Shown: positions 4,917 through 54,278, counted from the stretch's first letter. The stretch: 63,114 bases of DNA from Candidatus Aenigmatarchaeota archaeon (GCA_016187395.1 JACPJV010000009.1:1-63114); one strand, 5' to 3'. The notes: a model not told the origin generated them from the sequence alone. Program-made: numbers and translations.

Positions 4917-5528
4917 ATGCACGAGCTTCCCAAGCTGCCATATTCTTATGATGCCTTAGAGCCGCACATTGATGCGCGCACGATGGAAATCCATCATACG
5001 AAGCACCACCAGACCTATGTCACAAAATTGAATGAGGCGCTTTCTAAACACAAGCAGCTTGGCGGGAAGCCTGTTGACGAATTATTGAAAAATCTGAATG
5101 CGGTGCCTGAAGACATCCGCACGGCTGTAAGGAATCATGGCGGCGGGCATTTTAATCACAGCATGTTCTGGGTGATTATGGGGCCGAAGGGCGGAGGAAG
5201 CCCCGGCGGGGCGCTGGCTGATGCGATTTCAGAAAAATTTGGCGACTTTGCAAAATTCAAGGAGCAATTTTCAAATTCTGCAGCAGGGCTATTTGGCTCG
5301 GGCTGGGCGTGGCTTGTGCTGAGGAATGGGCAATTGGCAATAGAGACTACTCCCAACCAGGACAATCCTGTTTCTTCCGGTGCCAATCCAATTATGGGCA
5401 TTGACGTGTGGGAACATGCGTACTATCTGAAATTTCAAAACAGGCGGCCTGACTACATCGCTGCGTGGTGGAATGTTGTGAACTGGCGGGAAGTAGAAGA
5501 GAATTATAAAAAGGCCCAAAAAATGTAG
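4917..5528 (+). CDS. sod: Fe/Mn superoxide dismutase
   Basis: [23 protein letters not shown] and DVWEHAYYL signatures. 203 aa. Confidence 0.95.
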
Positions 5529-7353: not shown

Positions 7354-9525
7354 ATGGCAAAGGATAAAACAGAATTAGTGAAAGAGCTGATGGAACAGCC
7401 GGAGAAGATACGTAATATCGGAATCGCTGCGCACATCGACCATGGAAAAACCACGCTTTCAGACAGCCTGATAGCAGGCGCCGGCATGATTTCAGAGGAG
7501 CTGGCTGGAAAGCAGCTGTTCATGGACTTCACAAAGCAGGAACAGGAACGCGGAATCACTATATGGGCGGCTAATGCAAGCATGGTTCATGATTATGAAA
7601 ATGGGAATTACCTGATAAACCTCATAGACACACCGGGGCATGTGGATTTTTCCGGCGATGTCACCAGGGCAATGAGGGCAGTTGACGGAGTTATAATCCT
7701 TGTTGACGCAGTCGAGAGCGTGATGCCGCAGACAGAAACGGTAATAAGGCAGGCACTGCGCGAGCGCGTTAAGCCAGTCTTGTTTATAAACAAGGTAGAC
7801 AGGCTTATCCGCGAGCTAAAGTTCACGCCAGAGCAGATGCAGAAGCGGTTTGAAAAAATCATCTCTGACGTAAACAGGCTTATCATAAAATATGCAGAGA
7901 AAGAGTTCGCAGAAAAGTGGATAGTGAAGGTGGACGACGGTTCTGTCGCATTCGGGTCAGGCTATCGAAAATGGGCGATATCGGTTCCTGCCATGAAAAA
8001 AATGCAGATAAGCTTCAAGGACATCATAACCTATACGCAGGAAGACAGGGAAAGGGAACTGTCCAAAAAAGCGCCTGTTCACCAGATTTTGCTGAACATG
8101 GTTATCAAGCATTTGCCTAACCCGCTGGATGCGCAGAAATACAGGATTCCAAAGATATGGAAAGGCGATTTAGAATCAGGCATAGGCAAGGATATGCTTT
8201 CCATGAATTCGAAAGGGGTGCTGGCAGGCGTTGTGACCAAGGTATTGCCGGATCCGCATGCAGGAATTGTGGCTACAGCAAGGCTCTTTTCAGGCGCGAT
8301 ATCCCGCGGACAGGAGGTGCGCCTTATAGGACAACACATGACAAGGCGTATACAGCAGGTGGCGATATACAAGGGCCCGCAAAGAGAACAGATGGAAACC
8401 ATATTTGCAGGCAACATAGTGGCAATAACAGGGATACCGGAGGCATATTCAGGAGAGACTATATGCGACCCAAGCATAGAAATGCACCCTTTCGAGGCGA
8501 TAAAGCATATATTCGAGCCTGTAGTCACGAAGAGCGTAGAGCCGAAAAGCCCACAGGACTTGCAAAAGATCATAAATTTCCTGCGCCAGGTTAGCAGGGA
8601 AGACCCGATGCTGGAAATTAACATCAACGAGGAAACAGGCGAGTATCTTGTTTCTGGACTAGGCGAATTGCATATAAACGCAAAGGTAGAAAGGCCGCTT
8701 TCTGAGATGGGCATAGAAATCAAGGTGTCACCACCCATTGTCGTTTACAGGGAGACGGTGGGCGGAAGAGGCCCTGTTGCAGAGGGAGTAAGCTCAAACA
8801 GGCATAACAGGTTCTATCTAAGCGTGGAACCTCTGGAGCCTGCAGTTTTAGAGGCTATAAACGAGGGCAAGATATCAACAGAGAACGTGAAAAAGAACGT
8901 AAAGGAGGTTACAAAGCAGCTCGTAGATTACGGCATGCCGAGGGATGAGGCAAAGAATATAGTCGACATCTACAACAAAAACGTCCTCGTCGATGCAACA
9001 AAAGGAATACAGTACCTTCATGAAACGATTGAGCTTATCACAGAGGCGTTCAGGAACACGGTGAAAAAGGGTCCGCAGTCAAACGAGCCATGCGTTGGGT
9101 TGAAAGTGCTTGTAAATGACGCAAAGCTGCACGAAGATGCGATACACAGAGGACCTGCGCAGGTGCTTCCAGCTGTGAGCGACTCCATCAGGCAGAGCAT
9201 GATGAGGGCAAAGCCCCTGATACTTGAACCTATCCAGGTAATACGCATAGACGTGCCTGAGGAGATCATGGGCGCAGCTATTTCGCAGGTGCAGAACAGG
9301 AGGGGGCAGGTTATTAACATGGAAACAGACCTGGGAACTTCCATGATAACTGCAAAGATGCCTGTTTCAGAAATGTTCGGGTTTGAGGCGCAATTAAAAA
9401 GCGCAACAGGCGGAAAAGGATTCTACTCGCTGATAGACGTGAAGTTTGAAAAGCTGCCGGGAGAGCTGCAACAAAATGTCATAAGCAAAATCAGGCAGAG
9501 GAAAGGACTGGCAGAGGGGCAGTAG
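7354..9525 (+). CDS. fusA: translation elongation factor aEF-2
   Basis: AHIDHGKTTLSD G1 motif, DTPGH, NKVDR, and the diphthamide-region HEDAIHRGPAQ. 723 aa. Confidence 0.97.
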   Translation: MAKDKTELVKELMEQPEKIRNIGIAAHIDHGKTTLSDSLIAGAGMISEELAGKQLFMDFTKQEQERGITIWAANASMVHDYENGNYLINLIDTPGHVDFSGDVTRAMRAVDGVIILVDAVESVMPQTETVIRQALRERVKPVLFINKVDRLIRELKFTPEQMQKRFEKIISDVNRLIIKYAEKEFAEKWIVKVDDGSVAFGSGYRKWAISVPAMKKMQISFKDIITYTQEDRERELSKKAPVHQILLNMVIKHLPNPLDAQKYRIPKIWKGDLESGIGKDMLSMNSKGVLAGVVTKVLPDPHAGIVATARLFSGAISRGQEVRLIGQHMTRRIQQVAIYKGPQREQMETIFAGNIVAITGIPEAYSGETICDPSIEMHPFEAIKHIFEPVVTKSVEPKSPQDLQKIINFLRQVSREDPMLEININEETGEYLVSGLGELHINAKVERPLSEMGIEIKVSPPIVVYRETVGGRGPVAEGVSSNRHNRFYLSVEPLEPAVLEAINEGKISTENVKKNVKEVTKQLVDYGMPRDEAKNIVDIYNKNVLVDATKGIQYLHETIELITEAFRNTVKKGPQSNEPCVGLKVLVNDAKLHEDAIHRGPAQVLPAVSDSIRQSMMRAKPLILEPIQVIRIDVPEEIMGAAISQVQNRRGQVINMETDLGTSMITAKMPVSEMFGFEAQLKSATGGKGFYSLIDVKFEKLPGELQQNVISKIRQRKGLAEGQ
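9487..9525 (+). repeat. direct repeat copy 1 (authentic aEF-2 3' end)
   Basis: The last 12 codons plus stop (KIRQRKGLAEGQ*) recur at 10060-10098 with 34/39 identity. Confidence 0.9.
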
Positions 9526-9568
9526 AAGTGCGAAGGATAAACACCGAAGAAGTGAACCGGTGATTTTC

Positions 9569-9823
9569 ATGCCTTACGAAATTATCGTGAAAGAGCCTGC
9601 AGAAAGGAAGCTGAGAAAATTCCCGAAGGATATACAGCGCAGATTTGCAAAACGCGCGGAAAAGCTGGCGGAAAACCCGCATTCATTCGGCAAGCCTTTG
9701 AGGAATGTTCTGGCAGGCTATTGGGAAGATTACTTCGAAAGAAGATTCCGCATAATTTATACTATTGACGAAAATTCAAAAACTATTACTATAGAAGCCA
9801 TAAAGCACAAGGATGAATTCTAG
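9569..9823 (+). CDS. RelE/ParE-family toxin
   Basis: AERKLRKFPKDIQRRFAKRAEKLAENP...RFRIIYTIDENSKTITIEAIKHKDEF. GGTGA lies before ATG 9569. The track start is GTG 9560. Confidence 0.7.
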   Translation: MPYEIIVKEPAERKLRKFPKDIQRRFAKRAEKLAENPHSFGKPLRNVLAGYWEDYFERRFRIIYTIDENSKTITIEAIKHKDEF

Positions 9824-10005
9824 AGCCCGAGCTCTTTCCTCACTTCTTTCCAAGGTCTGCCCTTGGAAGTTTTGGATTCCTTGATTTGTTCCATAAGTTC
9901 CTTATCACCCAGAATTTCTATAGTTCTCTGCATACTCTCGTACTCGTCTTTGGAAATAACAACATAGCTAGTTTCATGCCTACCTTTTTCCATCAGCACA
10001 GACAT
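9820..10005 (-). CDS. Phd/YefM-family antitoxin
   Basis: VVISKDEYESMQRTIEILGDKELMEQIKES is a typical Phd/YefM core. GGTGA SD and a TTTAAAT box lie upstream on the minus strand. Confidence 0.7.
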   Translation of the reverse strand: MSVLMEKGRHETSYVVISKDEYESMQRTIEILGDKELMEQIKESKTSKGRPWKEVRKELGL

Positions 10006-10059: not shown

Positions 10060-10098
10060 AAAATCAGGCAGAGGAAGGGGCTGGCAGAAGGACAGTAA
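10060..10098 (+). repeat. direct repeat copy 2 (orphan aEF-2 3' end)
   Basis: Encodes the identical KIRQRKGLAEGQ* peptide. All 5 differences from 9487-9525 are synonymous, including TAG to TAA. Confidence 0.9.
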
Positions 10099-10184: not shown

Positions 10185-10218
10185 TTACTATCATACGTTT
10201 GTGAGTGAAGGTGTAAAT

Positions 10219-14631: not shown

Positions 14632-15882
14632 TTACTTCCGGGTGAGCGCGCGTATTAAGTCTCTGTCAGATATTCCCATCGAGGCCAACTTTCTTTTTGC
14701 CTCCTCATAAACCAGTTTTCTTCTTCTCTCAAATTCTTCGTCTATCTTTACCGCCGTAGCGCGTTCAAAGACAGACAGAAGAAGGCTTTCATCAGCAGGC
14801 TCTGGATGAGGATCTGCAAGGGCTGCTTCGAACAGCTTGCAGCATCTTTCTAAAACTCCAACGGCTTCAGGATATTCACTCTTTTTAATTGGATCCGAAC
14901 TCTTGAAGGCTACGTCAAAATATCCTGAGAAGCGCTTTCTGTCGTAATCAAGCCTTCTTTCTGCCATTTCCACGGCATACGCAACCCATAGGGGCATATT
15001 GTAAAGCGCGGATGCAAAAGATCGGGCAGATTCATGGATTTTTCTTTCATCTTCTGATTCCACGGTTGACGTATGATCAACCCTGCTTATTGCGATTTTT
15101 CCACTCCCTACGTGCGCTATTACGTGGTTTTGCCCAAGAAACGAATCCGGATGCATGACCAGTCTGGAGTCAGCAAGAGCTCTGCATTCAAATGCATGCC
15201 ATTGCAAAAGCGACTCGTAAAGTCTGCAAATACATTCTTTTATTTCTCTTAGCTCTTCCGGAGATGCGTGCTGCAGGTGCCTGCGCATCAGAACTTCAAA
15301 CTCATCCTGCCTGAGGTCACTCTCAATATCCGGCAGCTGAAGCACTTCGGAGTATAAAGGCTCGTTTTGCCATGTCAGAAACGGATATTCTATTGCGCCT
15401 GCGAACCTGCATGGCGAGGCCAATCCTAATTTCGAGTAGGCTTCTCCTAAAATTTCAAATGCCCTGCGGGAATTCCGAATATTTTCACGGGTAAGAAAAT
15501 TCCACGGCCTTCCATCCCTGTATCCAGGAAACGGAACGCAGAGCAGTTTGGAATGCAAAAGCCGCTCAACTGCCTGCGCATCCGGCACAGACTCTGCAGA
15601 ATGATCAACGTCCCGTATGATATTTTTTTCTGAGGCTGAGACTGTCCGTGTTATCACTCCTTTGGGATCTGCCCCTTTGATTCTATAAACTTCGCCATTT
15701 TCTTCTGTCAAAATCCCTCTTCCGCCGGAATTGTAGCAGTTCATATCTCCGTCTTCTGATGCAAAAAGAGGGAGCCTTTCAGATAGCCACGGGGGCATTT
15801 CTCCGGTTGTAGCATGCGGAGTAGCGTAGGTTTTCACAGGGACCTCTACCCGCACACTTTCCAGTATGCTTTTGTATGCCAT
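14632..15882 (-). CDS. hypothetical protein, possibly protein-kinase/APH-like fold
   Basis: HPDSFLGQNHVI (H-x-D..N) and ISRVDHTS (DxG-like) are spaced as in kinase-like catalytic loops. ATG 15882 sits ~23 nt downstream of a TTTAATAATTA box. The track ORF extends to 15918. Confidence 0.5.
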   Translation of the reverse strand: MAYKSILESVRVEVPVKTYATPHATTGEMPPWLSERLPLFASEDGDMNCYNSGGRGILTEENGEVYRIKGADPKGVITRTVSASEKNIIRDVDHSAESVPDAQAVERLLHSKLLCVPFPGYRDGRPWNFLTRENIRNSRRAFEILGEAYSKLGLASPCRFAGAIEYPFLTWQNEPLYSEVLQLPDIESDLRQDEFEVLMRRHLQHASPEELREIKECICRLYESLLQWHAFECRALADSRLVMHPDSFLGQNHVIAHVGSGKIAISRVDHTSTVESEDERKIHESARSFASALYNMPLWVAYAVEMAERRLDYDRKRFSGYFDVAFKSSDPIKKSEYPEAVGVLERCCKLFEAALADPHPEPADESLLLSVFERATAVKIDEEFERRRKLVYEEAKRKLASMGISDRDLIRALTRK

Positions 15883-15914: not shown

Positions 15915-15941
15915 TCATCCAGTCAGTTCAATTTCGATATC
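15915..15941 (-). repeat. orphan copy of the uS10 gene 3' end
   Basis: On the minus strand it encodes DIEIELTG*, versus NIEIELTG* at the real rps10 end (16490-16516). 22 of the first 26 nt are identical. Confidence 0.75.
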
Positions 15942-16458
15942 AGTCCAGAGTTCTGCGAGTTCCCCAGTATTTGCGCCATTTGTCAAGCAAATAGCCGTAG
16001 AGCCTTGCCGTTCCTCCGCCCAGCAGAAGTCCTGTGGGCAAAGCCACAGCCATTTCCTTCCATGATGCGCCTGAATAGTACAATATTGCTGAATATGTAG
16101 GTATCTGAAATGACAGCATGGCAGATGTGTCCACAAAGCGCTTTTTTGCGCGGCTGCTGTCCATGTCAGCTTTCCATAATCCTGCATACCAGTGCCTGTA
16201 CACGCCGTAAAGCCTGGCAACTGTAAGGTGAAACAAAACACTCCCTACCCTTGACTTCAGGACTTCTTCCGGTTCCATGCCCGCCCAGAAGTATTCCATT
16301 GATCCCAGCAATGGCGTGTAGAACATCAAAGAGCATGAGGTATCAACGAGGTAGTTTTTAAAACCATTCCACATTCTTCGGCTTCTTCTTATTCCGTACA
16401 ATTCATCAAGCAACTCAGGGCTTTGGACAGGATTTGCGTCATCTGCTTCTTTGTTCAT
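15940..16458 (-). CDS. alaE: AlaE-like L-alanine exporter family membrane protein
   Basis: VDTSCSLMFYTP..GME.E...SR...LYGVYRHW and FQIPTYSAILYYSGASW...YGYLLDKWRK align, from memory, with E. coli AlaE (ADTFAMVVY..GMSFEQ..SR..YGMYRD; FQSPVYVAILLVVGADW..YGYFLDYCRR). Confidence 0.7.
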   Translation of the reverse strand: MNKEADDANPVQSPELLDELYGIRRSRRMWNGFKNYLVDTSCSLMFYTPLLGSMEYFWAGMEPEEVLKSRVGSVLFHLTVARLYGVYRHWYAGLWKADMDSSRAKKRFVDTSAMLSFQIPTYSAILYYSGASWKEMAVALPTGLLLGGGTARLYGYLLDKWRKYWGTRRTLD

Positions 16459-16489
16459 GACTATAGAATTCAGCAGAAAAAGCCTTAAA

Positions 16490-16819
16490 TCATCCGGTCA
16501 ATTCTATTTCAATATTAACATCACGGGGAATTCTAATTCTTGTAATGCTGTGGAGAACACGCTCATTTGCTGCTACATCCAGGATTCTTTTGTGTATGCG
16601 CATCTCCCAGTGCTCCCAGTTGCCGCCACCGCCGCCGCGGTGCATGCCGTCGCCGCACGGAGTCTTCATGACAGGTATTTTCAGCGTCTTCGTAGGCAGC
16701 GGAATAGGACCTCTAACGACTACACCTGCCTTGTCTGCCATATCCTTTATTTCTGTGCATATGGAGTCAAGCTCCTTCGGGTCCTTTCCCGCCAGCTTTA
16801 TGCGCGCTGTCTGTACCAT
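16490..16819 (-). CDS. rps10: 30S ribosomal protein uS10
   Basis: ARIKLAGKDPKELD...GPIPLPTK...WEMRIHKRILD signatures. 109 aa. Confidence 0.95.
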   Translation of the reverse strand: MVQTARIKLAGKDPKELDSICTEIKDMADKAGVVVRGPIPLPTKTLKIPVMKTPCGDGMHRGGGGGNWEHWEMRIHKRILDVAANERVLHSITRIRIPRDVNIEIELTG

Positions 16820-16883
16820 AATATCACGTGAAACTGCTTTAACTCTGTATTAAGAATAAGGTATATAAGCGTTGCAGCAGGTT

Positions 16884-17264
16884 TCATTTCTTCCATACAG
16901 AGATTTTCTTGAGGACTTTGAGAAATCTTTGCCTGTTTTCAGGGTTCGTAAGAATGACAATGAAAACCTTGTCTTTCCCGTAGAAAATATCGATTCTTGT
17001 TCCTGTTTGGTGTATGTGCTCTCTTGTTGCCCCTGTGTAACTTTCATGCCTGTCTACGAAATCTTCAACCTTCTTTTCAACTGTATCTATATCTTCACCT
17101 TCCTTGTAATCAGAATATTTCACATCAACCATACCCCCGTAGCCAAAAGCCATTTCAAAGAATGTCTTGAGCCAGGGAAAGAAATGCTTATTTTTCCTAA
17201 CGATAAGATAGTTGAATGCATCCGCATTCCCTGCTCCAAGAATAGTTGCTTTTGGTATTTTCAT
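16884..17264 (-). CDS. hypothetical protein
   Basis: ORF trimmed to internal ATG 17264 to avoid overlapping the ndk start. No motif recognised. Confidence 0.4.
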   Translation of the reverse strand: MKIPKATILGAGNADAFNYLIVRKNKHFFPWLKTFFEMAFGYGGMVDVKYSDYKEGEDIDTVEKKVEDFVDRHESYTGATREHIHQTGTRIDIFYGKDKVFIVILTNPENRQRFLKVLKKISVWKK

Positions 17265-17316
17265 AGATAAAGTAAAACCCACAACAAATATAAACCTTGC
17301 TTTACATTCAGAGGCT

Positions 17317-17826
17317 ATGAAAGAAAGGACACTTGTCATTATCAAGCCTGACGGCGTTGAGCGCAACCTGATAGGGAAGATAATAGATTATTACGAAAGG
17401 GGAGGATTGAAGATAACTGCAATGAAGATGGTCAGGGCGGACAAGGCGCTTGTAGGCAGGCATTATCCCGAGGATGACGAGTACATGACTACGCTGGGCA
17501 AGAAGAGCGAGAAGGCAGGCGAAAAAATCAAGGACTACAAGGCGATGGGGCGCAAAATAGTAGGATGGCTGCGAACGTACATAACAAGAGGACCTGTTGT
17601 TGCGATGGTGCTTGAGGGCACAAACGCAATACAGCGCGTGCGTGAAATAACAGGCTACACAGACCCCTCTGCCGCGGAAAAAGGAACGATAAGAGGCGAT
17701 CTTGGAAATGATTCTATCCTGAAGGCAAACAAGGAGCGGCGATCTGCAGAGAACCTGATTCATGCGTCAGGCAACAGGGAAGAAGCGGAAAGGGAGATAA
17801 AACTGTGGTTTCCTGAGATGGGATGA
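17317..17826 (+). CDS. ndk: nucleoside diphosphate kinase with insertions
   Basis: ERTLVIIKPDGV, GPVVAMVLEG, TIRGDLG and NLIHASGN (active-site His). Two inserted segments relative to ~150-aa NDKs. Confidence 0.9.
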   Translation: MKERTLVIIKPDGVERNLIGKIIDYYERGGLKITAMKMVRADKALVGRHYPEDDEYMTTLGKKSEKAGEKIKDYKAMGRKIVGWLRTYITRGPVVAMVLEGTNAIQRVREITGYTDPSAAEKGTIRGDLGNDSILKANKERRSAENLIHASGNREEAEREIKLWFPEMG

Positions 17827-23339: not shown

Positions 23340-23939
23340 ATGGATATAGAACAACTAGGCAATTCCACCTCTGTTATAAGATTTGACGGCTGGCATTTTG
23401 CGCCTGTTGCAAGGAAAATTAAGGAAATTTTGCGCGAACGTCCTGACGCGGCTTTGCAATACGGTGATATTGTGATGGCGAGACTTGAAGCTGAAGAGCT
23501 GGATGTTGGCGAATTCGAGATAGGCACGAGATTTGGAGAGGGCCTGGCACTTGTAAATCTAGAATCAGGAGAGAGCGTTGTTTCACCTTCTGAAGGACAG
23601 ATGGATATCAGGAGGTACAGTGCGCAATTTGCACGGAAATACAAATGGAGCGATGTAAATTTCCGCGTTCTGGTTCCCGAAAGAAAGGGCATGATATATG
23701 TTGCTCATGATATTCCTGGAAGAAGCGATAGGACGTTTGTTCAATGGGCATATCACGCTCACGGTAGAGAGGCAGAAGAGATTCTCTCGGACGCAGAGTA
23801 CGGAATGTTTCAAGTATCGGGTAAACCTGTCCTTAATCTTGCCAATCTTATAAGAGGGGAACGCGCCTTTCTTATGGGAGAAGTGCTTATTGGGGCGACC
23901 GGTATTTACAGAGAGATTCCTAGAGGAAAATCTATCTAA
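23340..23939 (+). CDS. ORFan, paralog A of the pair flanking aIF2-gamma
   Basis: Shares LDVGEFEIGT, RRYSAQFARKY, RVLVPE..G.IYV, DIPGRSD..FVQW and YREIPRG blocks with 25396..25974. Confidence 0.6.
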   Translation: MDIEQLGNSTSVIRFDGWHFAPVARKIKEILRERPDAALQYGDIVMARLEAEELDVGEFEIGTRFGEGLALVNLESGESVVSPSEGQMDIRRYSAQFARKYKWSDVNFRVLVPERKGMIYVAHDIPGRSDRTFVQWAYHAHGREAEEILSDAEYGMFQVSGKPVLNLANLIRGERAFLMGEVLIGATGIYREIPRGKSI

Positions 23940-24118: not shown

Positions 24119-25348
24119 GTGATTATTTTCACAAAGGAAGAGAAGGGAGGGAGGACTGAAGTAAGCATAGGCGTTGTGGGTCACGTAGACCATGGAAAGA
24201 CTACGCTTGTGAAAGCATTAACAGGCAAATGGACTTCCACATACAGCGAAGAATTAAAAAGAGGGATCACAATCAGGCTAGGCTATGCTGACGCGAAATT
24301 TTATTATTGCGAGAAAGACAATTCATATTGTCCAACTCAGAAATGCAGCAAATGCTTTGGTGATGCTAAATTTGCAAGGGCAGTGTCGTTTGTGGATGCA
24401 CCCGGGCATGAGACGCTGATGGCGACGGTACTGAGCGGCGCAGCGCTAATGGACGGCGCGCTGCTGATTATATCTGCGACTGAAAAATGTCCCAGACCGC
24501 AAACGGCTGAACACTTAAAGGCGCTGGAGATTGCGGGCATAGGCAAGATCGTGATCGTGCAAAATAAAATAGATGCTGTTGATGAAAAAAGGGCAAGGGA
24601 AAGTTGCAGGGAGATAAAGGATTTTGTGAAAGGATCCATAGCTGATAATTCACCAATAATCCCTGTATCAGCATTGCACAATGCGAACATAGACATACTC
24701 ATAGAGACGATAGAAAAAGTAATCGAAACACCGGAGCGGAGCCTGAATGATGATTCTGTATTCTATGCGGCACGATCATTTGACGTGAACAAGCCCGGGA
24801 CAGACATTGAAAAGCTCAAGGGAGGCGTTATAGGAGGGGCGCTTTCCAAAGGGAGCATAGAGAAAGGGTCTGAGATAGAAATAGCCCCCGGCTTTAATGA
24901 GAATGGCGTATTCAAAAAACTAAAAACAAAAGTAGTGGGCATAGTGCAGGCGGATTTGCCTCAGGAAAAGGCATATCCAGGCGGACTGGTTGCACTGGAA
25001 ACATCTTTGGACCCGAGCCTGACAAGAGGCGATGTTCTGGCAGGAAATCTTGCAGGGCTTCCTGGAAAGCTGCCTGAATGCAAATTTGTGGTAAAATTCA
25101 AGCCAAACCTTTTTGACTATGTCATAGGCGTGGGCGGGCAGACAGTTGTAAGCCCGATAAAAACAGGCGACGCCCTTCTTGTAACACATGCGGTTGAAAA
25201 AAGCGTGGGCGCGGTCACGTCAGGCTCTGAAAAAGGCGTGGAATTAAAATTAAAGATACCGCTGTGCGTGCAGAAAGGGGATAAAATTGCACTATCAAGG
25301 CAGTCTGGCGGACGCTGGCATCTGATAGGATGGGGGGAGATAGTGTAG
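24119..25348 (+). CDS. eif2g: translation initiation factor aIF2 gamma subunit
   Basis: GVVGHVDHGKTTLVKALTG, the Cys-knuckle CEKDNSYCPTQKCSKC, DAPGHE and QNKID. Confidence 0.95.
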   Translation: MIIFTKEEKGGRTEVSIGVVGHVDHGKTTLVKALTGKWTSTYSEELKRGITIRLGYADAKFYYCEKDNSYCPTQKCSKCFGDAKFARAVSFVDAPGHETLMATVLSGAALMDGALLIISATEKCPRPQTAEHLKALEIAGIGKIVIVQNKIDAVDEKRARESCREIKDFVKGSIADNSPIIPVSALHNANIDILIETIEKVIETPERSLNDDSVFYAARSFDVNKPGTDIEKLKGGVIGGALSKGSIEKGSEIEIAPGFNENGVFKKLKTKVVGIVQADLPQEKAYPGGLVALETSLDPSLTRGDVLAGNLAGLPGKLPECKFVVKFKPNLFDYVIGVGGQTVVSPIKTGDALLVTHAVEKSVGAVTSGSEKGVELKLKIPLCVQKGDKIALSRQSGGRWHLIGWGEIV

Positions 25349-25395: not shown

Positions 25396-25974
25396 ATGCT
25401 ATCAAACCAAGCTAGTGTTGTGAGTCTGGATGAACTGGAGTTAAAGCCCTATATAGTAATTGGGCGAAAGCTTGTGCATGGAGCGCCTAGACTAGCCTTT
25501 GTATTAGGAAAGCTTGTTCTGGTTGGAATTAGAGGCGAAAGGCTGGATGTTGGCGAATTTGAAACAGGCACGATGGAAAGAGAGGTAGAAATAGCAAGAC
25601 GAACTCGGGGAGAAGATTATTTAATGGATGTTTCATATGGACAACCTGTTGTAAGAAGACATAGAGCACGATACGCAAGAAGGTATATGGATGGATTTGA
25701 TGATGAAACTAGGGTACTGGTTCCACAAGACGATGGTCGGATATATGTTGTGCAGAATATACCACGCAGGCCTGACCATTTCGTGCAATGGGATGATTAT
25801 TCCCATGATCCTGAAAAGGAAAGGGTTCTTGACAGTGCTGATTGCGCGATATTTCTAGCGACTAATGCTTCTATAATGCCTTTGGTCGCACTTGTAGGCA
25901 AATCTCACGCCTTGTTTTTGCATAGGGGTTCAGGTTCAGGTGGAAGTTACAGAGAGCTTAATAGGAGAAACTAA
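25396..25974 (+). CDS. ORFan, paralog B of the pair flanking aIF2-gamma
   Basis: LDVGEFETGT, RRHRARYARRY, RVLVPQDDGRIYV, NIPRRPDHFVQW and YRELNRR align with 23340..23939. Confidence 0.6.
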   Translation: MLSNQASVVSLDELELKPYIVIGRKLVHGAPRLAFVLGKLVLVGIRGERLDVGEFETGTMEREVEIARRTRGEDYLMDVSYGQPVVRRHRARYARRYMDGFDDETRVLVPQDDGRIYVVQNIPRRPDHFVQWDDYSHDPEKERVLDSADCAIFLATNASIMPLVALVGKSHALFLHRGSGSGGSYRELNRRN

Positions 25975-28068: not shown

Positions 28069-28104
28069 AACCTCCTGCATAACCTCCCCTTTCAGGAGCT
28101 TTCT
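28069..28104. repeat. perfect 36-bp direct repeat, distal copy
   Basis: AACCTCCTGCATAACCTCCCCTTTCAGGAGCTTTCT is identical to 28812-28847. Confidence 0.95.
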
Positions 28105-28158: not shown

Positions 28159-28386
28159 ATGACGAACATGACTCTGGCAGTTCCTGAAGACCTGAAAGAG
28201 GCGATGGACAGGCACAAGGAAGTCAGGTGGAGCGAGATAGCAAGGCAGGCGATGTGGGAGCATGCACGAAAGCTAGAACTGATGGACAAGCTTCTTGCAA
28301 AGAGCAGGCTGACCGAGAAAGACGCAGAGGAATTGGGCCATAAAATAAAGCATGGAATTGCAAGGAGACACGGGCTGGTAAAATGA
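28159..28386 (+). CDS. VapB-like antitoxin
   Basis: MTLAVPEDLKEAMDRHKEVRWSEIARQA pattern. 4-nt ATGA overlap with the PIN gene. Confidence 0.6.
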   Translation: MTNMTLAVPEDLKEAMDRHKEVRWSEIARQAMWEHARKLELMDKLLAKSRLTEKDAEELGHKIKHGIARRHGLVK

Positions 28387-28805
28387 AAATCGTGGTGGAT
28401 ACGAACAGAATAATAGCAGCTTTAGTCAAAGACAGCACAACGCGGGAAATCCTGTTCGACAGAAATTTTGAGTTTGTAACACCAGACCATACTATAAAGG
28501 AAGTATACGAGCATAAAGACGAATTGAAGGTCAAAACAAATCTCAGCAATGAAGAATTTGACATCCTCATGGCATTTATTTTCGAGCGCATTGAGATTAT
28601 CCCAGAATCAGATTACAGGGATTTTATGGAAGAATGCAGGAATGATATAAGTGATCCGGATGATGTGCCGATTCTTGCTGCGGCTGTCGCCATCAAAACC
28701 GATGGCATATGGGCGCATGACCCTCATTTCAGAGAACAAAACAAGATAAAGGTATTTACGAATATAGACATGCTGAGATTCAGTGGCCGAATGAAATCAG
28801 GTTGA
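28383..28805 (+). CDS. PIN-domain toxin
   Basis: KIVVDTNRIIAAL ... DPDDVPILAAAVA ... DGIWAHDPHF, the acidic residues of the PIN fold. Confidence 0.75.
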   Translation: MKIVVDTNRIIAALVKDSTTREILFDRNFEFVTPDHTIKEVYEHKDELKVKTNLSNEEFDILMAFIFERIEIIPESDYRDFMEECRNDISDPDDVPILAAAVAIKTDGIWAHDPHFREQNKIKVFTNIDMLRFSGRMKSG

Positions 28806-29105
28806 TTACTTAACCTCCTGCATAACCTCCCCTTTCAGGAGCTTTCTCTGGAGGCCCAGGATGAGAAGCTCTGCATCATTATCGCTATAGCCCAACTTTT
28901 TCAGGATCTTTATTCCTTCCGGCAATATTTTGGCGGATACGTTCTTCGACAGCTGGGGATCAAAGGAGAAGAAAGTGGCTTCGAAAGGTATTTTTTCCTC
29001 CAGTTGCATTTCACCGCGCATGGTTATGACGTTGTTTCCATAAGGCGCGAAGCCCTTGACGTAAACGGCGAAATCAGGGACAGGCATGATATCAGCTGAA
29101 ATCAT
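28806..29105 (-). CDS. hypothetical protein whose 3' end is the cassette target
   Basis: 99-aa ORF. Its last 14 codons include repeat copy 28812-28847. Confidence 0.5.
   Translation of the reverse strand: MISADIMPVPDFAVYVKGFAPYGNNVITMRGEMQLEEKIPFEATFFSFDPQLSKNVSAKILPEGIKILKKLGYSDNDAELLILGLQRKLLKGEVMQEVK
28812..28847. repeat. perfect 36-bp direct repeat, gene-proximal copy
   Basis: Identical to 28069-28104. On the minus strand it encodes RKLLKGEVMQEV of ORF 28806..29105. Confidence 0.95.
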
Positions 29106-53368: not shown

Positions 53369-53986
53369 ATGAGCGACAACAAGAGCATGGCAGCTATGAC
53401 ACTGGTCATAGTGGCTGTGGCAATCATGGCATTCAACCAGTATACCTTGATGTCCATAAACGGAGGCACAGCTGCAATAACAGGAAACGTCGTGGCTGAG
53501 CAGCAGAACGCAGCCACGCTGCAGGAGGCGATAGACGCGGTCATTCCGAGAGGTGTGCCTGCTGTCTACGGCGAGGAGCTCGGGGTGAGCTTTGACAAGC
53601 CGCAGGAGTCGCTGAACATACTTGCGAATCTGGACGGCGACCTTTATGACAACGGCAAGCTGCACTTCGCTGATTTGACGGCAGAGCAGCAGGAGAGCTA
53701 CAAGCAGATAGGCGCGTCGATTGCATGCGAGTATTGCTGCGGAGCAACCACGCTGATCTTCAGCAACGGCCAGCCTGCGTGCGGGTGCGCGCACTCGGCA
53801 GGCATGAGAGGGCTTGCAATGTATTTGCTCATAAACAATCCAGAAATGAGCAACGAGCAGATTTTGGATGAGCTAACAGACTGGAAGGCGCTGTTCTTCC
53901 CCAAGGAGATGGTTGCCAAATACATGCAGCAGAACGGGCTGACGCAGGGCGCGGCAGAGCTTCCGGATATGGTAGGAGGGTGCTAA
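53369..53986 (+). CDS. single-pass protein with CCG / P-x-CGC Cys cluster and C-terminal MVGGC
   Basis: N-terminal TM. CEYCCGATT...QPACGCAHSAGMRG resembles the PCYCGC-motif family. It ends in LPDMVGGC*. Confidence 0.6.
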   Translation: MSDNKSMAAMTLVIVAVAIMAFNQYTLMSINGGTAAITGNVVAEQQNAATLQEAIDAVIPRGVPAVYGEELGVSFDKPQESLNILANLDGDLYDNGKLHFADLTAEQQESYKQIGASIACEYCCGATTLIFSNGQPACGCAHSAGMRGLAMYLLINNPEMSNEQILDELTDWKALFFPKEMVAKYMQQNGLTQGAAELPDMVGGC

Positions 53987-54008
53987 GCGAATCGTGAGGT
54001 TGATTTCA

Positions 54009-54278
54009 ATGGCAAGAAAAACAGAGGATGAAGAAAATTTAGAAGATGACAGCAAAACCGGGTGGCATGCAAGCAGACAAAGAGAAAGCAGCGTAAGCAC
54101 GGTTCTGATTGTGCTGCTGGCTGTGCTGGTGCTATTCTCTGCAGCGCAGGCTGTGCAATTGGCAGAGATAAGGAGCGAAGGGTTGCCTTTGACAGGAAAC
54201 GTTGCAGCGCCGCAGCAGCAGGCGCAAGTGCCACAAAGCCTGCAGAATGATCTCCCTGAAATGCAGGGTGGTTGCTGA
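54009..54278 (+). CDS. single-pass mini-protein ending in MQGGC
   Basis: GTGAGGTGA SD lies 5 nt before ATG 54009. TM, then LTGNVAAPQQQ, ending in LPEMQGGC*. This resembles the head and tail of 53369..53986. Confidence 0.5.
   Translation: MARKTEDEENLEDDSKTGWHASRQRESSVSTVLIVLLAVLVLFSAAQAVQLAEIRSEGLPLTGNVAAPQQQAQVPQSLQNDLPEMQGGC

Follow-up and report, generated by a model that had tools for sequence, protein, structure and literature searches.

In a 63,114-nucleotide (nt) stretch of DNA from a Candidatus Aenigmatarchaeota archaeon (GCA_016187395.1, JACPJV010000009.1:1-63114; this whole stretch is referred to as the window), the last eight codons of rps10, the gene of ribosomal protein uS10, were found twice, flanking a gene of the AlaE family. 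We consider the chances about even that the second, stranded copy (hereafter the orphan) is one half of an attachment-site-like (att-like) direct repeat, generated by the integration of DNA that carried its own version of the gene end. The phylum tally came to about ten duplicated gene ends.

When eight functional/orphan pairs were compared (six of rps10, one of aEF-2 and one of infB), all 33 nucleotide differences were synonymous (33/33). If one copy had drifted neutrally, the probability of this result would be 1e-2 to 1e-4 per pair and ~5e-25 jointly. Simple duplication in place followed by decay is therefore excluded. Judged from the sequences, either both copies were recently working gene ends, or the orphan itself would be under coding-like constraint.

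The end of rps10 and its second copy

The rps10 gene of the window (16490-16819, minus strand; 109 amino acids (aa)) is intact. Its product matches Pfam Ribosomal_S10 over profile positions 1-98 of 98 (E 8e-25) in an undisturbed reading frame and is 77-91 % identical to rps10 of Aenigmatarchaeota, and these relatives place the window in Candidatus Aenigmatarchaeota, a DPANN phylum. The functional terminal segment, NIEIELTG-stop (16490-16516; AAT ATT GAA ATA GAA TTG ACC GGA TGA), contains the repeat proper in its last 24 nt (16490-16513). The orphan, (D)IEIELTG-stop, is on the minus strand at 15915-15941 (GAT ATC GAA ATT GAA CTG ACT GGA TGA), with its 24-nt core at 15915-15938. The four differences within the core (ATC/ATT, ATT/ATA, CTG/TTG and ACT/ACC) are each synonymous, in agreement with the initial annotation, whose numbers for this orphan were all right. 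A fifth difference (AAT/GAT) marks the edge of the repeat.

The 27-nt end of rps10 agrees with the orphan at 22/27 positions, and the next-best place in the window gave at most 18/27. Shuffling the window 200 times gave no match better than 20/27. Chance similarity or an assembly artefact is thus hardly credible as an explanation: the observed value exceeds the shuffle maximum at exactly the predicted place, the same junction is found in another assembly, and the pattern recurs in six other loci of different samples. The other assembly is Logan contig L082 (1010 nt, SRR12113385), which was assembled separately and is base-for-base the same across the junction of the AlaE-family gene, the orphan and the following gene; it stops short of rps10, and SRR12113385 may or may not be the source of the window. 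On the side of chance or an artefact, the repeat is short, and one apparent duplicated end in a related genome (L020, 217-347) was rejected as an assembly-gap artefact, with the same sequence on both sides of an N run. Scaffolding gaps of this kind can imitate the duplicated-end architecture.

Between the 27-nt copies lie 548 nt with a single open reading frame (ORF), and 551 nt separate the rps10 stop from the orphan core. This ORF (15940-16458, minus strand) encodes an AlaE-family small membrane protein of 172 aa; the initial annotation had named it an AlaE-like exporter. It matches Pfam PF06610 with an E-value of 1.2e-20 and 74.5 bits (cut-off 25) over profile positions 7-138 of 141. Its TGA overlaps the first codon of the 27-nt orphan by two bases, and the 24-nt core starts directly after. 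Four hydrophobic stretches (residues ~37-51, 66-87, 112-126 and 135-158) were obtained with a crude hydropathy window rather than a topology predictor, and the product is likely a small four-helix membrane exporter that probably exports a small solute. No NCBIfam family was found for it at E <= 0.01, including a curated match that would equate it with the E. coli-type L-alanine exporter; alanine export would be an analogy with E. coli only.

The 31-nt spacer 3' of the rps10 stop (16459-16489, minus strand) contains TTTAAGG and AATTCTAT. The former may serve as a TATA-like box ~30 nt upstream of the AlaE ATG, and the latter is the antisense of ATAGAATT in the rps10 end. The AlaE-like gene probably has its own promoter directly 3' of the rps10 stop. 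Its database gene call has 144 aa from M29 (16374), and homologues cover 80-99 % of the 172-aa form; translation may start at M1 (16458), with the TTTAAGG box 31 nt upstream, or at M29.

A profile search returned 89 relatives of the AlaE-like protein. All named relatives among the 80-odd at 36-55 % identity are DPANN, with Nanoarchaeia, Woesearchaeota and Pacearchaeota at 36-51 %, whereas the named bacterial relatives (Nitrospinota and Nitrospirota) reach 30-32 % only. Because of these identities and a genome-like GC content (47.8 %), the gene is best regarded as a patchily distributed DPANN gene and not as a recent bacterial import, and the bacterial origin that the initial annotation had raised was not supported. 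The neighbours of the nearest homologues differ in every genome, and no duplicated gene ends were found at their loci.

Downstream of the orphan, a gene of 416 aa with no assigned function was called at 14632-15882 (minus strand), and TTTAATAATT, a TATA-like box, follows the orphan directly and precedes this gene. Homologues cover 97 % of the 428-aa query, which fits the shorter 416-aa call. The ATG in the orphan's GGATGA is probably not the start of this gene, which is called from 15882. The protein has no Pfam or NCBIfam match, and none of its homologues (33-58 % identical) adjoins rps10 in other genomes.

Two roles of the orphan were considered and dropped. It was rejected as the promoter of the downstream gene, the TATA-like boxes being 3' of the orphan at rps10 and ~80 nt away at aEF-2. 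An archaeal bulge-helix-bulge intron or ribosomal bypassing was weighed on paper and also rejected: the offsets between copies fall in all three frames, the first copy is already terminated by a stop, and no bulge-helix-bulge motif was seen by eye. A 126-aa ORF (16451-16831, plus strand) runs antisense through the whole of rps10 and beats it in a naive longest-ORF call. The exact rps10 protein of the window has no record in the protein collection searched, possibly because of this antisense ORF.

Duplicated gene ends in the window and in related genomes

When all ORF ends of the window were compared with 5 kb on each side, a real nearby copy was found for three genes only (rps10, aEF-2 and a gene of 99 aa). 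At aEF-2 (7354-9525, plus strand) the architecture is the same as at rps10, which the initial annotation had already recognized. The last 39 nt of the gene (9487-9525), encoding KIRQRKGLAEGQ-stop, are repeated at 10060-10098 (plus strand), upstream of tuf at 10201; 17 nt are identical at the 5' side, followed by 5 differences that are all synonymous, TAG/TAA included. The enclosed cargo (9560-10005) comprises a ParE/RelE-like toxin (9560-9823, plus strand; Pfam ParE_toxin E 2e-8) and a convergent Phd/YefM-like fragment (9820-10005, minus strand; PhdYeFM E 0.008, below the cut-off).

The third case in the window is the 99-aa gene (28806-29105, minus strand) beside RNase P p30. Its 36-nt repeat has a functional copy at 28812-28847 and an orphan copy at 28069-28104, both on the minus strand and 36/36 identical. 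The orphan reads ...MQEV followed by TGA, which looks like the original stop, and the gene now ends ...MQEVK-stop with AAGTAA contributed by the insert. The cargo (28159-28805, plus strand) consists of a 75-aa ORF in the antitoxin position, with no Pfam family above the cut-off, and a PIN-domain toxin (PIN_2 E 1.4e-20) in a VapBC-type arrangement antisense to the 99-aa gene.

For comparison, 143 usable rps10 loci of Aenigmatarchaeota were collected from species-representative genomes and metagenomes. A second IEIELT(G/D)-stop was present downstream of rps10 in 7/143 loci. Two of the seven have a gene between the copies: the window, with the orphan 551 nt past the rps10 stop, and locus L040, where a 71-aa ORF is enclosed and the orphan lies 218 nt past the stop. 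The other five (four distinct sequences) enclose only a hairpin spacer of 38-69 nt; their orphans are found 55 nt (L017), 69 nt (L083), 39 nt (L088 = L090) and 38 nt (L093) past the stop. All rps10 orphans start at one isoleucine codon (within 2 nt) despite at least three unrelated fillings, and every orphan except that of L040 keeps the last residue (G or D) of its own genome's rps10.

In the rps10 tree the orphan-bearing loci are scattered beside orphan-less sisters (L016/L017, L091/L093 and L039+L104/L040). L016 is without a ~75-nt block found in L017, L091 is without the orphan of L093, and L040 shares rps10 and the 71-aa ORF with L039 and L104 at 95 % identity and diverges from them exactly at its orphan start. 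The nearer loci mostly have adk or ndk 2-130 nt past rps10 and then infB, with no orphan; something was therefore added in the window.

The closest relative of the window is L083 (91 % rps10 protein identity). This sister is one of the five loci without an enclosed gene, and its spacer has no significant similarity to that of the window. The initial annotation had held that orphans without any inserted gene in relatives would speak against an AlaE insert bounded by the orphan, and this concern was partly justified. The orphan is a genuine second rps10 end, but as gene-less orphans occur in relatives, the sister included, the insertion of the AlaE-like gene cannot be credited with creating the duplication.

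A fourth target gene was found in L090, where the end of infB is repeated 565 nt downstream. The copies are 30/30 identical and then read GGG CTT TAG and GGA TTA TGA, and the gene between them (177 aa) has 36 % identity to the gene that follows. The window and L090 have several duplicated ends each, and most genomes have none. At the 99-aa gene, aEF-2 and infB, the copies agree fully over their 5' part (36, 17 and 30 nt), and the differences lie only nearer the 3' end. Nucleotide and peptide scans of 1.3 Mb of related loci revealed no true case besides rps10 and this one infB. Peptide-scan matches in L058 and L086 are true tandem paralogues with a different look from the orphans, and the other matches are the assembly gap of L020 and paralogous C-termini.

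A target-site or tandem duplication in place with later divergence, made by a transposon-like insertion with a 24-39 nt staggered cut or by unequal crossover, would place direct repeats exactly around the insert, as seen. The 36/36 repeat at the 99-aa gene would fit a fresh event of this kind, the L090 cargo is paralogous to the next gene, and the L017 insert, when aligned to L016, is bracketed by GATTT. Still, this origin is very unlikely: a drifting orphan should show mostly nonsynonymous changes and 0/33 were seen, while the two genes in L090 are only 36 % identical beside a 30/30 repeat. In addition, the AlaE-like and 416-aa proteins are unrelated, so that the copies are not those of a tandem gene duplication, and no terminal inverted repeats or transposase were found. 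A left-end motif common to the inserts (GATTTYMAT) was also tried; it occurs at chance frequency in the window and was dropped.

Several other observations were made at these loci. The two ORFs in the aEF-2 insert overlap by 4 nt, the Phd/YefM-like one matches only the C-terminal half of its profile, and their convergence differs from the usual antitoxin-then-toxin operon; they may be two fragments of separate events. Among L101, L038, L103, L100 and L087, aEF-2 and tuf are separated by 43-70 nt in the distant Aenigmatarchaeota and by 0.9-2 kb in the nearer ones, where the spacer holds small membrane proteins, a DEAD-box helicase-like ORF and other assorted genes. No orphan copy of the aEF-2 end was found in these five spacers, and this spacer is a variable hot spot independently of orphans. 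Also, rps10 is divergent from ndk/infB in the window (16490-17826) and in L083 (1-1625) and on the same strand as these genes in most Aenigmatarchaeota loci. As the divergent order is common to both, the two genomes split after an inversion or rearrangement that had one breakpoint at rps10. Inverted repeats that would explain it were sought at the flanks, and none was convincing.

Elsewhere in the window, paralogous ORFs of 199 aa (23340-23939) and 192 aa (25396-25974) flank the eIF2-gamma gene (24119-25348); they share stretches of 60 nt and 29 nt at 75-76 % identity and have no Pfam match. Adjacent ORFs of 205 aa (53369-53986) and 94 aa (53994-54278) have a common end, LP(D/E)M.GGC-stop, and a Gln/Ala-rich stretch; the pair looks like small paralogues, membrane-bound or secreted, and not like a gene-end orphan.

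Hairpins in the gene-less forms

In L017, L088 and L093 the stretch past the rps10 stop is the exact complement of the genome's own rps10 end (TGAAATCGA/TCGATTTCA or TGAAATAGAG/CTCTATTTCA). The order in these loci is rps10 stop, complementary strand, second hairpin and orphan. The second hairpin has a fixed lower stem, CATCAGA...TCTGAATG with one bulged A, and a covarying upper stem. Its copies are located at 5355-5381 in L017, 3118-3143 in L088, 699-723 in L093 and 5240-5265 (minus strand) in L016. The L016 copy is not at rps10 but between two convergent genes, and the hairpin is therefore a repeated, terminator-like one; it may be a REP-like (repetitive extragenic palindrome) or terminator-like repeated element of Aenigmatarchaeota. 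The spacer of L083 is unlike those of the other three gene-less sequences and that of the window.

A stem-loop at the rps10 stop codon was also predicted in ~10 of the 67 orphan-less loci that were folded, which makes it probable that the antisense strand is native. The orphans of L093 and L017 are each followed by a 3' flank that matches them (GAA...TTC, as against GAG...CTC at the functional end) and thus behave as whole terminal units of rps10. Three or more bases past the rps10 stop could often pair with the Glu-Leu codons that lie five codons earlier (GAR YTN A ... T RR YTC), as seen in a minority of loci such as L023, L107, L109, L100 and L043; the predicted stem-loop would contain the rps10 stop codon.

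These structures raise the question of whether the orphan has a structural function, as RNA or DNA, where the rps10 transcript ends. It would mimic the coding end and compete for the antisense strand of the stop-codon hairpin (a terminator or switch), and the AlaE-like gene would have entered the loop later. The gene-less L017, L093 and L088 fold strongly relative to shuffles (z -6.0, -4.8 and -2.5), the post-stop strand exactly complements each genome's own end (ATCGA/TCGAT as against ATAGAG/CTCTAT), and the differences between real end and orphan in L017 are G-U compatible with a common partner strand. The fixed lower and covarying upper stem of the second hairpin and the stop-codon hairpins of orphan-less loci point the same way. 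We nevertheless regard a structural role as unlikely to be the origin of the orphans. Nine differences, again all synonymous, fall in the 12 nt left unpaired by the antisense strand, the L093 orphan pairs poorly with that strand, and the unrelated L083 spacer folds weakly (z -1.46). In the window the orphan, at a distance of 551 nt, lacks its own hairpin. Furthermore, genes and not hairpins lie between the copies at aEF-2, infB and the 99-aa gene, and no Rfam family was found for the hairpin region.

Proposed integration at gene ends and its relation to known systems

Under att-like integration, a small DNA with its own copy of the last 24 nt of rps10 would recombine into the resident rps10 end. 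One copy would complete rps10, and the other would be stranded beyond the insert, beside the resident downstream DNA. The synonymous differences would then be two lineages' versions of one gene end, and the AlaE-family gene would be cargo from the DPANN gene pool. The same process would have acted at aEF-2 and the 99-aa gene in the window and at infB in a relative, and the rps10 end would have been used repeatedly in the phylum. Should cassettes both enter and leave, either copy would from time to time be the working end, which would keep both clean. The two copies presumably come from different lineages, recombination would be site-specific or via short homology, the recombining enzyme would act in trans, and the inserts would be remnants or non-autonomous miniatures of larger elements. 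The AlaE-like gene may have arrived with the event that made the duplication, or it may have entered a pre-existing duplication like that of L083.

At the window sites direct repeats of a gene end flank the insert and the target gene is intact. Two toxin-antitoxin sets and a small membrane protein of patchy distribution are the kind of cargo usual in mobile DNA, and the targets rps10, aEF-2 and infB are highly conserved translation genes, which also favours integration.

A number of results weigh against it. No integrase, casposase or transposase was detected in any insert or in the ~50 window ORFs scanned against Pfam, and a search of the 143 loci up to 10 kb past rps10 gave no larger element. 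Between the rps10 copies no identical run exceeds 6-7 nt, which is short for a crossover core; the runs at the other sites are those given above (36/36, 30/30 and 17 nt). Five loci (four distinct sequences) have a duplication but no cargo, which is unusual for an integrative element, and inserts of only 0.04-0.75 kb are unlike a standard element. IMG/VR contained no free element with the rps10-end pattern (two chance matches inside phage genes) or with the 36-mer of the 99-aa gene (none). In the search for empty sites proposed in the initial annotation, most relatives had rps10-adk/ndk without an orphan, but none is close enough to present the window's own site minus the AlaE-like gene, and the sister L083 is already orphan-bearing. 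Finally, the stop-codon hairpins and the orphans with a matching flank suggest that RNA or DNA structure may shape these sequences. In one IMG/VR phage contig (L163, 9182-10733), a 444-aa ORF ends EGELPWQR-stop and its nine-residue end is found again 190 nt downstream; this is unrelated to the archaeal cases.

The missing recombinase and the synonymous-only differences are also accounted for by a recombination scar without a dedicated element, which we consider a possible but not a probable origin. Here rps10 and the downstream DNA of a related lineage would replace the resident gene, with a homologous crossover on the left and an illegitimate or microhomology join on the right, just upstream of the resident last 24 nt, so that the resident end survives as the orphan (homology-facilitated illegitimate recombination). 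The L040 locus agrees with this, having other DNA than L039/L104 from the orphan on, and the orphans of L093 and L017 with their own pairing 3' flank are what a whole resident terminal unit would leave. Because gene order past rps10 varies within the phylum, a homologous crossover on the right would often be impossible, and the L090 cargo is a homologue of its resident neighbour. However, illegitimate joins should vary, yet the six distinct rps10 orphans start at the one codon, and the fully identical stretches at the 99-aa gene and infB resemble a recombination core and not diverged orthologues.

A more speculative and, in our view, doubtful extension of integration is a cassette-exchange system of Aenigmatarchaeota whose cassettes need no recombinase of their own. 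Docking would take place at the last codons of conserved genes (rps10, aEF-2 and infB) with their stop-codon hairpins, small cassettes would often move in and out, the copies would alternate as the working end, and hairpin-only forms would be empty docks. In a bolder version, the stretch between the copies may be removed from the RNA or bypassed and the orphan translated.

The 3' ends of tRNA genes and of protein-coding genes serve integrative elements as attachment sites. Cis-mobilizable elements (CIMEs) are integrase-less, att-flanked islands derived from integrative and conjugative elements (ICEs); in Streptococcus thermophilus, for example, they occur at the 3' end of fda. They are regarded as remnants or as mobilised in trans. 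The inserts described here are similarly small, lie between att-like repeats at a housekeeping gene's 3' end and carry no recombination genes. CIMEs differ in being bacterial and in coming from known ICE families with a known integrase, whereas the inserts here have no known parent element.

The inserts also resemble integron cassettes in their one or two tightly bounded ORFs, their toxin-antitoxin cargo and, in the gene-less forms, the hairpin-forming site beside an ORF. There is, however, no attC core (RYYYAAC/GTTRRRY) at the junctions, no array and no IntI in the window, and in contrast to integrons the sites are the ends of different host genes. Mobile insertions in organelles (e.g. in atp6 of Allomyces) bring a replacement C-terminal coding part and strand the original downstream. 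As in that case, there are two terminal coding copies here, one functional and one orphan, both from real genes; the atp6-type inserts belong to another domain of life and carry a homing endonuclease gene, and no such gene is present in the inserts here. With casposons the aEF-2 case has the target gene end in common, which is the sole common feature. Casposons have a target duplication of 14-15 nt, compared with the 39-nt repeat at aEF-2 and repeats of 24-39 nt in general; no Cas1, no polymerase and, by eye, no inverted ends were found.

The closest comparison is with the integrated mobile genetic elements (iMGEs) of Thaumarchaeota. According to the part of the survey by Krupovic et al. 2019 (PMC6563490) used here, 14/68 integrated elements target the 3'-distal part of protein-coding genes, EF-2 is the commonest target of thaumarchaeal casposons, and the integration of NitEve-E2 replaces the stop codon of the target gene. 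The likeness to these iMGEs (PMC6563490) extends to repeats of the gene end flanking the insert, a reconstituted gene, conserved targets including EF-2, and apparent empty sites in relatives, and the 99-aa gene, whose present stop codon comes from the insert, recalls NitEve-E2. Unlike the thaumarchaeal iMGEs as described there, which are kilobases long with their own recombinase, the inserts here measure 0.04-0.75 kb, have zero to two genes and no integrase, and the rps10 repeat is without a long identical core. Neither rps10 nor infB was met among the target genes in that part of PMC6563490.

DPANN archaea have tiny genomes with much gene exchange, and the route by which new genes enter is poorly known. 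The very small inserts described here (toxin-antitoxin pairs, a membrane exporter or a bare hairpin) are found at the ends of some of the most conserved genes. If they are merely decayed ordinary integrative elements, the finding would be a modest addition to knowledge. If they represent a regular gene-entry route, rps10 and infB would be new integration targets, duplicated gene ends would be a simple mark in the sequence by which genes that uncultured archaea acquired recently can be found, and the Aenigmatarchaeota would offer a test case for the movement of integrase-less cassettes.

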